Positions 21,001 to 27,000 of a stretch of DNA of 64,000 bases are shown piece by piece. Each line of letters opens with the position of its first letter. Positions within the stretch are counted from its first letter, which is position 1. The DNA lies in assembly GCF_057098645.1 (NCBI RefSeq), contig NZ_CM169472.1, one strand, 5' to 3'. Made by a program: the position numbers.

Positions 21001-24000
21001 TTTCTCCCTTTCAACGATAAGCCAGGCATAATGTGGCTGCTTAAGCCAATTGTCGCAAAGCCAAAGATCTCTATATAGCTAACCTCATGGTTAATCCGAT
21101 CTCAGTAATACCATGAGAAAGAACTATTTCCTTTTTATGTAACTCTTAAGGGTTACAAGCGTGAATGCAAATGGTAATATAATGAAATGTCGCCTGCCCG
21201 TAATGACCATAAAGAATCTACCCCGACGTAAAAGATATAGAGAATAAGATGCAGTAATGATGATGCTTTGTTAATCAAATAACAAGATTTAAATTAATTG
21301 TAACTCATCAACTTTGTTGTTTTATTCGGATGTCTGAAATGATGTCGTACAGAAAACTACATATCATTTCAGATATCCTCTAAATTGGATTTTTTTCACC
21401 CAAGGAGGAAGGATGGGAAACTTTTAAATTATTGTGTTTTAGTAAGTTAGGTACTTCGCCGCTCGATGAAAAAACAATAACTCTTAGTTGTTTTTTGAGT
21501 CCTTATTTCAGCTTATTTTTCGTGATTTTTTATTGCGCCTGGTGATAGGATTTGCCGCAATCATTTTTGCTGATATTCCGTGAGTCATCAAAAGTGATCT
21601 GTATGTCCAAAATGAATAGCATCAATAAGGAAAACGTTAGTGGCGATGATAAATTTAAGTAAGGAAGCGACGGTGGGTAAAGCATTAACCCCTATTGCTA
21701 TACTTATGATGTTGTCTTTTCCTGTAGCTTCTCAAGCAGCTGGATTAGTCATAAAAAATGGAACGGTATATAACGCCAATGGTGTGCCAGTCGTTGACAT
21801 CAACAAACCTAACGGTAGCGGTTTATCTCATAATATCTGGGATAACCTAAACGTTGATAAAAATGGTGTCGTTTTCAATAACAGCGCTAATGAATCCAGT
21901 ACTTCACTTGCCGGAAATATTCAGGGAAACAGTAATCTGACCTCCGGGGCGGCGAAGGTGATCCTGAATGAGGTTACTTCCAAAAATCCTTCAACCATTA
22001 ATGGGATGATGGAAGTCGCAGGGGATAAAGCGGATCTGATTATTGCCAACCCGAATGGTATTACTGTAAACGGTGGTGGTTCAATCAATACAGGTAAACT
22101 GACCTTAACCACCGGGACGCCGGATATCCAGGATGACAAGCTGGCCGGTTACTCCGTGAACGGCGGTACCATTACGCTCGGTAAACTGGATAACGCCAGC
22201 CCGACAGAAATTCTGTCCCGTAACGTGGTGGTTAATGGCAAAGTGTCTGCCGATGAGCTGAACGTTGTTGCTGGCAATAACTATGTTAATGCCGCAGGCC
22301 AGGTGACCGGTAGCGTATCCGCCACGGGTTACCGTAACGGTTACAGCGTAGATGTTGCCAAACTGGGCGGAATGTATGCGAACAAAATTAGTCTGGTCAG
22401 CACCGAGAAAGGTGTAGGGGTTCGCAACCTGGGCGTTATCGCAGGTGGGGTTAATGGTGTCAGCATCGATTCCAAAGGTAATCTGTTAAACAGTAACGCC
22501 CAGATTCAGTCTGCAAGCACGATCAACCTGACGACAAATGGTACTCTGGATAACACCACCGGTACGGTGACATCTGTAGGCACTATCTCGCTCAATACCA
22601 ACAAGAATACTATCGTGAATACCCGTGCGGGTAACATCTCCACGATGGGCGATATCTACGTTAACAGTGGCACGATTGATAACACCAACGGCAAGCTCGC
22701 CGCAGCAGGTATGCTGGCGGTTGATACCAATAACGCCACGCTGATTAACTTTGGTAAAGGGAGTTCTGTCGGGATTGAAGCGGGGCTCGTGGCGCTGAAA
22801 ACCGGAACGCTCAACAACAGCAATGGTCAGATTCGCGGCGGTTATGTGGGGCTTGAATCAGGCGCGTTGAATAACAACAACGGTGATATTCAGACCACCG
22901 GCGATATCGCCATTATCAGTAACGGTAATGTGGATAACAACAAAGGTCTGATCCGTTCGTCCACCGGGCATATCGTTATTGGTGCGGCAGGTAGCGTAAA
23001 TAATGGTTCAACCAAAACCGCCGATACCGGCAGTTCTGACTCTCTGGGCATTATTGCAGATACCGGCGTAGAAATTGGTGCGAACAACATCAATAACAAC
23101 GGCGGACAGATTGCGTCTAATGGCAACGTCTCCCTGTCAAGTTACAGCACGGTCGACGATTATGCGGGCAAAATTCTGTCCAACAGCAAAGTGATTATCA
23201 AGGGAAGCTCACTGCGTAACGATACCGGGGGGATCAGCGGTAAGCAGGGTATTGAAGTCGCCGTTGGCGGCAGCCTGACCAATAACATTGGCGTGATCAG
23301 CTCTGAAGAAGGTGATATCTCCCTGTTAGCCAACTCAGTGGACAACCACGGCGGCTTCATGATGGGGCAGAACATCACGATGGAGTCGATGTCTGGTGTC
23401 AATAACAATACCGCGCTGATCGTGGCCAGTAAAAAACTGAAGATAAATGCGCGCGGCAGTATCGAAAACCGCGATGGCAATAACTTCGGTAATGCTTATG
23501 GTCTGTACTTCGGCATGCCTCAGCAAACGGGTGGAATGGTCGGCAAGGAAGGCATCGAGCTTTCCGGGCAGAACATCTATAACAACAACAGCCGTCTTAT
23601 CGCTGAGGATGGTCCTCTGACTCTGCAGGCGCAGAACACGTTCGACAACACGCGTGCTCTGGTCACCAGCGGGGCGGATGCATCTATTCAGGTTGGCGGA
23701 ACGTATTACAACAACTACGCTACCACCTGGAGTGCGGGCAACCTGGATATCGACGCGACCACGCTGCAAAACAGCAGCAGCGGTACGATGATCGATAACA
23801 ATGCGACCGGGTTTATTGCATCTGATAAAAATCTGTCACTGGAATTGGTGAATAGCCTTACCAACTACGGCTGGATCAGCGGTAAAGGCGATGTTGATGT
23901 CACGGTGAATAACGGCAACCTGTATAACCGCAATACCATTGCGGCTGAAAAGGGGCTGGATATTGCCGCGTTGAACGGTATTGAAAACTGGAAGGATATT

Positions 24001-27000
24001 TCTGCTGGCGGCGACCTGACGATGAACACCAATCGCCATGTGACCAACAACTCCAACAGCAATATGGTGGGGCAGAATATCGTTATTAACGCGGTTAACG
24101 ATATCAACAACCGTGGCAACATTGTCAGTGACGCTGACCTGAACGTGACAACCAAAGGCAACCTGTATAACTATCTCTATATGGTGGGTTATGGGGATGT
24201 CGCATTAACGGCAAATAGCGTGGCGAACAATAACGCGACCATCGAAGCGACAGGCGATCTGATTATCGATTCGAAGGGCAACGTGGGCAATTACCACGGT
24301 AAGCTGCATGCGTTGAACGGCGTGTTGTCTGTAAAAGGCAGCAATCTGAACAACGACTACGGTGAAATTCGTGGTTATGACGACGTCACGCTGGCACTGA
24401 CGGGCAACTACGACAGCTTTAAGGGCTCGCTGACCTCTGAAACGGGCGACGTGACTCTGACGGCGAACATCATAGACAACGCCTATGGTCTGATTGCCGG
24501 TGAGAATGTTTCTGTCGATGCTAAATCGACGATTTACAACAACACTGCGCTGATCGCGGCGAATAAAAAGCTAACCATTAATGCTGGGGGCAACATCGAT
24601 AACCGGGATGGTAATAACTTCTTGCGTTATAACGGTGAAGTTTTCGGTATTACTGACAACGTTGGTGGCATTGTGGGTAAAGAAGGTGTCACGCTTTCTG
24701 CTCAGAACGTCTACAACAACAACAGCAGTATTATCGCTGAAAATGGTCCGCTTAATCTGCTGTCCCGGGGAACGCTGGATAATACCCGCGCGCTTCTCAG
24801 CAGTGGGGCTGATGCCATTATCCGTGCGGCAGGGACGTTCTACAATAACTATGCCACTACGTACAGCGCCGGTAATCTCGACGTTTATGCGGCGTCGTTG
24901 AGTAACGCCAGCGATGGTCGTCTGGAAGACAATACCGCCACGGGTGTGATTGCGTCTGACAAAAACCTGGATCTGAACGTGGATAACAGCGTCACGAACT
25001 ATGGTTGGATCAGCGGGAAAGGGGATGTGCATTTCAATGTTCTGAAAGGCACGCTGTATAACCGTAATGCCATCGCAGCGGACAACGCGCTGACCATTAA
25101 TGCCCTGAACGGTGTTGAGAACTTTAAAGACATCGTGGCGGGAACTGCGCTGACTATTGATACGCAGAAGTATGTTACCAACAACAGCAACAGTAATATG
25201 TTGGGGCAAACCATCGCGATCAATGCCGTGAATGACATTAATAACCGTGGAAATATTGTAGGTGATTATTCTCTGGGGGTTAAAACCACCGGTAATATTT
25301 ATAACTACCTCAATATGCTGAGTTATGGTGTCGCTGGCGTATCGGCAAATAAGGTTACGAATAGCGGTAAAGACGCTGTTCTCGGTGGCTTCTACGGTTT
25401 AGCGTTAGAAGCAAACGAAACTGATAACACCGGTACTATTGTCGGCATGTAAGATGTAACCAAAGACAGCAGTGGCTTTTAATATTAATGCGTCATGTCA
25501 CGCAGGGGTTGCTGCTGTCTTTATTTAGTTTGAGAAGATAATGCAATTACGATTTAATTTTGGTTTGCTGCTCATTCTTTGTTGTTTTCAGGTTGCAGCG
25601 AAAGACAGTCTTGATAATTTGATCAAGCAGCAAAAAAATGCAGATGAAAGCACGTTACGCGCGCATAAATTAGAAAAAAAAGATGTTTACTCAAATGCAC
25701 AACGTAATGCGTTTACTCTGGGTGATCTGCCGCAGGAAAAGAATTGCTTTATCGTTAATCGGGTAGAACTGGAAGATAACTTTCTGGGTGGTCAGTTGAT
25801 TTCTGAAGTGCAAAAAGCGATTGCCGGACGTTGTGTCGGTAGTGCTGGTGTGCAAAAAATTGCTGCTGCCTTGCAGGATTATTATATTAATGCCGGATAT
25901 ATCACAACGCGAATTAGTATTCCTTCGCAGGATATTTCTAAAGGCAAGCTACGTTTCCAGGTTAATGCCGGGAAGATAGAAAAAACGATTGTGGAAGGTA
26001 ATGACATCAGTGAATGGATGTTACCTTTTCAGCGTAACGATATTCTCAATATTCGCGATATTGAACAGGGGTTGGAAAATCTTCAGCGAGTACCTGACGT
26101 TGATGTGAAAATTAATATTGAACCGGGAACACGGGATGGTTACAGCATCGTTCATATTGATACACACCGGGGGAAAAACTGGAGCGTTCGGGCAAGTTAC
26201 AACAATTGGGGCGATGAAGAAACGGGCCGTTACCAGACAACCGCGGTGGGTTATCTGTTTAATCCAGCGAAAATGGGGGATCTGTTTTATCTCGCCGGTA
26301 CGCGTAGTACTACCGGACAGTATGAAAACGTCAGTAGTTATTATTCCATTCCGGTGGGTTACTGGGAGTACGGCTTTTTCTATAGCAAAAGTAAATCGCA
26401 GCAGGTGATTCCGCTTTCGTACATCTCGCTGGATTATGTTGGCACCAGCGAATACTTGAGCGCAAAAGCGACGCGTACCGTTTATCGCGATAAAACAAAA
26501 AAGTTCGCCGGTAGTGCAGAACTCATTCGAAGAAAGTCGAATTACACGCTTAATGGTGAGGAGCTGACATTACAGGCGCGGGATATGGGAAATATCAAGC
26601 TGGGGCTAAATTATAAGCAACAGTTACCCGGTGCGTTCTGGGATTCAACCCTCTCGTGGCAACGCTTTTTAACCTGGTTCGGTGGTGAAAAAACGCCAGA
26701 TATGCAATATGGCGACGTTAGCCCGGTAAGCAATATCTTTAAATTTGAGGTTAACTATACCCGACAAATAAAGAATGGATATTACAATACTGCTTTTTTT
26801 GCCCAGTACGCACCGCGTGAACTGACTTTGCAAGATCAAATTACAGTTGGCGATCGTTGGAGTATTCGCGGGTTTGAAAATAGCGTGGGTTTGTCAGGGA
26901 ATGATGGTTTTTATATAAAAAATACGCTGGCATTTCCTTTGCCTGGAATGAAAGCTAACTATTATGCCGGTCTTGATTTTGGGCAAGTGTATCAGGACGC

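Follow-up and report, generated by a model that had tools for sequence, protein, structure and literature searches.

The stretch of DNA analyzed here, 64,000 nt of contig NZ_CM169472.1 (NCBI RefSeq assembly GCF_057098645.1) and hereafter called the window, carries tpsA, a gene for a secreted exoprotein with a large internal repeat that is the subject of this work. RefSeq annotates the same tpsA coding sequence (WP_001240833.1), and the adjoining gene tpsB begins 88 nt past its end (Table 1). The tpsB product combines two POTRA domains with a ShlB-type barrel. Since tpsA carries a two-partner secretion (TPS) domain and adjoins a POTRA/ShlB gene, the two genes make up a type Vb (two-partner) secretion pair in which tpsA comes first.

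Identity of the gene and its domain composition

Judged by its sequence and position, the window gene is otpA itself, an already characterized gene, in an O145-type allele; OtpAB of E. coli O157:H7 represents the same gene and locus. The window tpsA and the same-locus gene of EDL933 show 96.6% nucleotide identity over all 3813 nt and encode proteins of equal length (1270 aa), and the order of genes in both genomes is the same: fimbrial operon, tpsA, tpsB, acpS. The 6.5-kb tpsAB region has 100% identity with E. coli O145:H28 strains RM12761 and RM13516 and is present in 382 of the 5426 complete E. coli genomes, mainly those of O157:H7. OtpA and OtpB of E. coli O157:H7 were reportedly published by Choi, Dawson and Bernstein in 2007 and by Choi and Bernstein in 2009. 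According to reviews, otpAB corresponds to ECs1282-1283 and lies beside the fimbrial locus loc6 in E. coli O157:H7, OtpAB is a genuine TPS system that groups with neither hemolysins nor adhesins, and the secretion of O157 OtpA (the O157 allele, not the window allele) depends on its partner OtpB. The name otpA (ECs1282) was given to the EDL933 gene from the literature text and the loc6 context, not by locus-tag look-up.

The N-terminal 33 residues of OtpA are a probable Sec signal peptide, as read from the translation without a predictor. The TPS domain that follows is also matched by the NCBIfam model TIGR01901 (E = 7.7e-22) and matches, among solved structures, the TPS domains of FHA (1rwr, E = 1.4e-35) and HpmA (E = 1e-33). 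The NPNGI motif at aa 137 is invariant across the family alignment, and the first TPS motif is NPSTI at aa 116, where NPNL is expected. Filamentous-hemagglutinin repeats (Fil_haemagg) were matched by Pfam; the same search found no C-terminal prodomain or other additional domain, and a motif search of OtpA found no VENN/pretoxin motif.

Table 1. Coordinates in the window of the tpsAB genes, of the parts of OtpA, and of neighboring features.
Feature	Window positions	Strand	Residues of OtpA	Evidence and remarks
tpsA, O145-type allele of otpA	21640-25452	+	1-1270	3813-nt open reading frame (ORF), GTG start, 1270 aa
Probable Sec signal peptide	21640-21738	+	1-33	Ends ASQA/A; read from translation
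TPS secretion domain	21763-22485	+	42-282	PF05860, E = 2.3e-41
Non-duplicated beta-helix shaft (predicted)	22486-23205	+	283-522	AlphaFold2 model; ~21-aa sequence periodicity
Repeat unit A	23206-24339	+	523-900	378 aa, ~18 coils
P0007 crossover, homologous site in A	23462-23474	+		Partner in B 24596-24608
Helical extra-solenoid insert of unit A (predicted)	23476-23511	+	613-624	GNNFGNAYGLYF; DSSP helices, model residues 331-342
P0008 crossover, homologous site in A	23671-23675	+		GGGGC; partner in B 24805-24809
Repeat unit B	24340-25449	+	901-1270	370 aa
Helical insert of unit B (predicted)	24610-24645	+	991-1002	GNNFLRYNGEVF; helix, model residues 709-720
tpsB (otpB), outer-membrane transporter	25541-27160	+		Pfam ShlB 1.6e-70, POTRA_2, POTRA_3; RefSeq annotation
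IS110-family element	11917-13340			ORF 12144-13340 (+): DEDD_Tnp_IS110, Transposase_20
Fimbrial usher gene	13335-15698
IS66-family element	15716-18156			ORFs 15752-17290, 17340-17687, 17684-18085 (-)
207-aa ORF	19627-20250	-		No Pfam match
acpS and downstream cluster	27176-39500
tRNA-Ser(GGA)	42162-42249	-
ES056 small RNA (sRNA)	47850-47941	-		Rfam, 119.7 bits
ES036/CssrF sRNA	58035-58077	-		Rfam, 47.9 bits

Tandem duplication inside tpsA

We compared by BLASTP the C-terminal 370 aa of OtpA with the first 900 aa of the same protein. Residues 901-1242 aligned with residues 523-864 and were identical at 200 of the 342 positions (58% identity, 74% positives), with zero gaps, a score of 400 bits and an E-value of 8e-137; all other internal registers stayed within 22-29% identity and did not exceed 62 bits. 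The similarity extends to DNA, where a core formed by positions 23404-24217 and 24538-25351 has 67.8% identity (E = 2.7e-74) at an offset of exactly 1134 nt, and a repeat finder gives the same spacing. Since the offset of 378 codons equals the length of the unit, the two copies, units A and B, abut. The final 28 aa of unit B represent the family-conserved C-terminus and are not part of the repeat.

An earlier note, made from the sequence alone, had described a tandem, colinear and diverged duplication inside tpsA. This description is borne out by the gap-free alignment at the 378-aa offset, and the off-diagonal self-similarity expected of such a duplication is present at both protein and DNA levels. 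The proposed span (23341-25370) and the peptides quoted for it (at aa 590 and 968) do belong to the repeat; its start, however, lies ~135 nt further upstream, and the unit comprises 378 aa, of which 342 are alignable, and not ~300 aa.

Long beta-helical stretches rich in asparagine and glycine may resemble one another by composition, and OtpA, with 15% Asn, 13% Gly and a pervasive ~21-aa periodicity, is a protein of this kind. We give this generic explanation practically no credence. The weak scores of the other registers argue that the likeness of A and B is neither a general beta-helix similarity nor a compositional one, and the two copies align in one register without a gap and at the level of DNA as well.

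Predicted structure of the repeat units

Autocorrelation of the protein sequence with BLOSUM scores revealed a period of 20-21 residues with harmonics at 41, 61, 81 and 102 residues, both within the units and upstream of them. The AlphaFold2 model, which covers aa 283-1270 and was built on 51 homologs, is one uninterrupted solenoid with three strands and ~21 residues per coil (mean pLDDT 95.9). The modeled fold is the right-handed parallel beta-helix expected of a TpsA passenger. The modular beta-helical stalk suggested by the earlier note finds support in this prediction, in which the solenoid runs unbroken through both units. As 378/21 = 18, the unit corresponds to a whole number of beta-helix coils. 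The secondary-structure (DSSP) strings of units A and B show 86% agreement at the offset of 378 residues versus 49 +/- 10% at other offsets.

Both units have a short insert, predicted to be helical and to lie outside the solenoid (Table 1), and the two inserts are spaced exactly 378 residues apart in the model. The insert of unit A is followed (window 23512-23580, aa 625-647) by the motif YFGMPQQxGGMxGKEG, which is conserved in A units and in one-unit relatives. At the equivalent site of all B units (24646-24714, aa 1003-1025), the MPQQ part is replaced, and the sequence follows the pattern FG[IV]T..VGG..GK. The A-unit and B-unit clades are equally conserved.

Age of the duplication

Units A and B share about 61-68% nucleotide identity, with a nonsynonymous divergence (dN) of 0.32, a saturated synonymous divergence (dS) of 1.6-2.4, and a dN/dS ratio of 0.13-0.21. 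The low ratio together with the saturated dS indicates that purifying selection has long preserved both copies. In three divergent E. coli alleles, the A/B identity at the protein level is 58.5-59.1%, and this near-constancy argues that the copies are not being homogenized.

Neighbor-joining (NJ) trees with bootstrap were constructed from the units of E. coli, Enterobacter and Aeromonas together with one-unit relatives. All B units fall into one clade (bootstrap 100%), and all A units into another (78%). The group comprising A, B and the one-unit proteins P0041, P0043 and P0044 is supported at 100% and lies within the other one-unit proteins; one of its members, the one-unit protein P0043, sits in the syntenic locus of a distant host. 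The simplest reading of these trees is that a single duplication took place before the gene spread among these genera.

Unit number among relatives and strains

Counting units in OtpA and its 120 best homologs (121 proteins) yielded one unit in 83 proteins, two in 38, and three in none. Two-unit proteins were found in E. coli, several Enterobacter species, and Aeromonas veronii, and one-unit proteins of ~850-930 aa in Klebsiella, Kosakonia, Pantoea, Leclercia, Mixta, Rahnella, and others. When unit A was run exhaustively by phmmer against 1.84 billion representative proteins, none with more than two units came up; there were 13 hits below 1e-30, and giant TpsA proteins matched with only 24-29% identity. 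Relatives of OtpA (P0006, P0034, P0037-P0040, P0010) differ in length by 21, 41, 85, 162, and 378 aa, which is close to 1, 2, 4, 8, and 18 coils of ~21 aa. A 1129-aa form is common to four clusters, that of Enterobacter bugandensis among them.

The length of tpsA among strains was checked on 60 records drawn at even intervals from the ranked list of 381 matching complete E. coli genomes. The gene has 3813 nt in all of them except for one copy of 3812 nt and one fragment. In register, A and B of the window have at most 12 consecutive bases in common, against 17 in EDL933 and 11 in strain D8; these runs fall short of the roughly 20-30 nt that RecA-dependent exchange in E. coli usually needs. Thus, with just 11-17 identical bases shared between the copies, the two-unit state is stable.

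The O145-type OtpA and its EDL933 counterpart differ in 24 aa, most of them close to where A meets B and to the start of unit B. The nucleotide differences between these alleles cluster in window positions 24190-24940 (gene nt 2550-3300), where there are up to 17 per 150 nt, versus 0-4 elsewhere; EDL933 and D8 are nearly identical across this segment. Such a mosaic pattern at the A/B boundary suggests allelic recombination.

If tpsA were an active contingency-like locus, in which frequent homologous recombination changes the number of units among strains, one would expect variants such as the three different in-register one-unit chimeras described below, and the near-whole-coil indels of other homologs could be taken in the same sense. 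We regard this explanation as very improbable, given the shortness of the identical runs, the uniform length of the gene in the sampled genomes, and the lack of a three-unit protein in both the family set and the exhaustive search. In addition, the saturated dS and the constant A/B identity imply that there is no gene conversion between the copies. The repeat is not an active length-variation locus.

One-unit A/B chimeras

Three relatives lack exactly 378 aa, in frame and in register: P0007 (892 aa) lacks aa 610-987, P0008 (892 aa, labeled E. coli by NCBI) lacks aa 677-1054, and P0035 (893 aa) lacks aa 736-1113. The flanks of P0007 and P0008 are ~97% identical to the window. The contig of P0035 is only ~77% identical to it and therefore comes from another species. 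In each chimera, the remaining unit switches sharply from A to B, and the three crossover points are different; at the DNA level, ~400/437 nucleotide sites distinguishing A from B switch cleanly. At the site that follows the insert, P0007 keeps the B version of the motif only, and P0008 and P0035 the A version only.

The P0007 junction lies within the 13-nt TCGAAAACCGCGA that is common to A and B in O157-type alleles, and this chimera is 98.9% identical to a composite of an O157-type allele. The P0008 junction lies within GGGGC, 5 nt in the alleles available. Both junctions examined thus fall in microhomologies of 5-13 nt, which points to replication slippage or illegitimate recombination rather than to ordinary homologous recombination.

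All three chimeras come from short-read or draft (Logan/ENA/TPA) assemblies. Among the 5426 complete E. coli genomes the E. coli chimeras were not found, and the best matches there consist of two pieces spanning 3813 nt. One could therefore suppose that the chimeras are artefacts of assembly and that the duplication has never been lost, which we consider improbable for the following reasons: (i) a false join needs a shared k-mer, and k-mer assemblers, with k probably ~31, cannot join copies sharing at most 17 nt, (ii) each of the two E. coli chimeras turned up, with the same junction at the orthologous locus, in assemblies of two or more independent samples, (iii) contigs of 20-45 kb run through this locus, with flanks close to those of the window, and (iv) at every one of the three junctions, both reading frame and register are preserved exactly. 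Because the A and B copies share too short an identity for k-mer joining, the chimeras are regarded as real. The earlier suggestion that such repeats can drive length variation by recombination holds only insofar as these one-unit forms exist: their formation is rare and one-way, the identical runs are shorter than ordinary homologous recombination usually needs, and comparison of strains gave a nearly uniform length in complete genomes with one-unit alleles in drafts only.

In both samples carrying P0007 (L004 5466-7085 and L005 4554-6173), tpsB is split into ORFs of 378 and 152 aa, and a GCV_T-family gene is likewise split. In the complete genome of strain D8 (L008 4002-4013), tpsB is annotated as frameshifted. 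The OtpAB system thus appears to be decaying in some lineages, and in the P0007 lineage the loss of a unit coincides with decay of the transporter gene.

Assessment of the proposed history

Taken together, the explanation that we favor, with a probability of roughly 85%, is an ancient in-frame head-to-tail duplication of 378 residues in OtpA that has been stable and is rarely reverted at microhomologies. Several points weigh against it. Reviews give the function of OtpA as unknown, and the label "adhesin" is putative, so that any functional role of the extra module is something that we infer. The one-unit forms are known solely from drafts, as stated above, and replication slippage is a mechanism that we infer from their junction sequences. 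Finally, the branching inside the group of A, B, P0041/43 and P0044 is ambiguous: A and B alone are joined with 8% bootstrap, and B and P0044 with 80%. Duplication in situ is for this reason not cleanly separable from an acquisition of unit B.

The latter topology would fit a fusion of two lineages, in which unit B came already diverged via out-of-register recombination with a laterally acquired one-unit allele; the mosaic structure that the island shows when E. coli alleles are compared, in which 150-nt stretches near the A/B boundary diverge by as much as 11%, is in line with such events. However, P0044 is weakly A-like over its first 200 residues and then B-like, and may itself be an ancient chimera, in which case it would distort the tree. 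Trees of half-units are inconsistent in this respect, joining B and P0044 with 14% and 67% support. Moreover, the two units abut in exact coil register with zero gaps, which is the outcome of unequal crossing-over within one gene. We therefore consider the fusion unlikely and retain the internal duplication of OtpA as the preferred history.

Comparison with other two-partner systems

The best solved structural match to the OtpA model is EtpA, the TpsA adhesin of enterotoxigenic E. coli (ETEC; PDB 8vba/8vbb), with 14% structure-aligned identity. In a sequence comparison, no PDB chain, EtpA included, matched the OtpA unit even at E <=10. EtpA contains three 228-aa repeats and a partial repeat that form an unbroken helix and jointly bind the blood-group-A glycan (PMC11100705). 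If the OtpA model is correct, both proteins carry large tandem modules within one continuous beta-helix. The size and number of these modules are different, 378 aa x 2 in OtpA and 228 aa x ~4 in EtpA, and, unlike the EtpA system, otpAB has no EtpC-like glycosyltransferase gene next to it.

The filamentous hemagglutinin FHA (FhaB) of Bordetella, like other TpsA proteins of this type, has in common with OtpA the TPS domain, the Fil_haemagg match, the signature of 20-aa beta-helical repeats, and the tpsA-then-tpsB gene order. OtpA is, however, much shorter, and contains a two-copy super-unit of 378 aa instead of long arrays of 19-20-aa repeats. CdiA shares the N-terminal TPS domain and beta-helical repeats, and one relative of OtpA (P0085) carries the source label "tRNA nuclease CdiA-2". 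We rejected the identification of OtpA as a CdiA toxin, as it has neither the VENN motif nor a toxin domain, and the order of genes is A-B and not B-A-I; since tpsB follows tpsA after 88 nt, there is no immunity gene in otpAB. A hemolysin of the ShlA/HpmA type was also rejected on the basis of the gene order (A-B, not tpsB-tpsA) and the length of the protein (1270 aa versus ~1600 aa), and the resemblance of OtpA to HpmA is confined to the TPS domain.

Genomic surroundings

The intergenic region upstream of tpsA (20251-21639) has 1389 nt and 33.7% G+C; both its length and its A+T content are unusual for E. coli. A promoter and terminator scan of positions 20200-27600 gave no enrichment over shuffles and no plus-strand terminator between tpsA and tpsB, and an Rfam scan gave no hit in or near tpsA. 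Between the fimbrial operon and tpsA lies a conserved 207-aa ORF, which occupies the same position in EDL933 and in the chimera-carrying contigs.

Two mobile elements are located in the fimbrial operon. The IS66-family element sits near the 5' end of the usher gene, and its minus-strand ORFs encode DDE_Tnp_IS66, TnpB_IS66, and a helix-turn-helix (HTH) transposase; comparison with an intact locus (L002) revealed a match of ~9 bp on both sides of the insertion. This exact arrangement is present in no complete E. coli genome of the collection, and RM12761 has an IS3 element and a deletion there. The IS110-family element, with its transposase gene, lies between the gene for a 444-aa fimbrial protein and the 3' end of the usher gene, and the 100% match with O145 genomes of the RM9872 type ends at position 11916. 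The two insertions indicate that a loc6-like fimbrial operon has been hit by two insertion sequence (IS) elements in this genome. Collinearity of the window with O145:H28 RM12761 turned out to be wrong upstream of tpsA, as RM12761 lacks both the IS110- and IS66-family insertions of the window.

Downstream, acpS begins 15 nt after tpsB and is followed by genes for a short-chain dehydrogenase/reductase (SDR), a FabZ/FabA-like dehydratase, an acyl carrier protein (ACP), an aminomethyltransferase-family protein, two ketosynthases, an ABC transporter, and a LolA-like protein. The linkage of tpsAB to this lipid cluster is kept in a distant host with a one-unit TpsA (also L010 9376-12679, L006 5823-7290), and this conservation suggests a functional or operon link. 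Further downstream the window contains the gene for tRNA-Ser(GGA), which may mark the boundary of the island, and two sRNAs recognized by Rfam (Table 1).

Proposed workings of the two-unit protein

Based on the family and on the published work on O157 OtpAB, OtpA would be exported by Sec, and the POTRA domains of OtpB would recognize its N-terminal TPS domain. The structural model implies that OtpA, threaded through OtpB, would fold outside the cell into one continuous rod. The rise of a beta-helix is generally 4.8 Angstrom per coil; the duplication would thus lengthen the rod by ~18 coils, or roughly 85 Angstrom, and would double the module with its small insert outside the helix. Once duplicated, the two copies have remained under purifying selection and have diverged to the present 58% amino acid identity, with unit A keeping the presumably ancestral YFGMPQQxGGMxGKEG and unit B replacing this motif. 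Reversion to one unit has been rare and would occur through in-register deletion at short homologies, filtered by selection for an intact solenoid.

By analogy with EtpA, it may be speculated that the second module adds reach or a second binding site. A more specific version of this idea, which we find rather doubtful, is that the units are two distinct binding modules, so that two-unit OtpA would be bivalent or dual-specific in the manner of the EtpA lectin repeats. If so, the one-unit chimeras would be natural specificity or loss-of-function variants, and the ligand or role of OtpA could be tied to the product of the neighboring lipid cluster.

Biological meaning

As a type of event, the duplication is ordinary, since large internal duplications are a standard route by which the beta-helices of TpsA proteins and autotransporters are lengthened. 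The tpsA repeat provides a clean, dated case of module duplication in a beta-solenoid, with a unit of whole coils (~18 x 21 aa). The near-whole-coil length differences among relatives (21, 41, 85, 162, and 378 aa) suggest that the register of the fold constrains which length changes survive, and the three independent deletions of exactly one unit suggest that a long-diverged repeat can collapse without homologous recombination. The motifs specific for A and B, together with the natural one-unit alleles, are ready-made constructs for probing the function of OtpA. In sum, this known exoprotein carries a module duplication that is ancient and fixed in almost all strains, and that has secondarily been lost only in rare cases.

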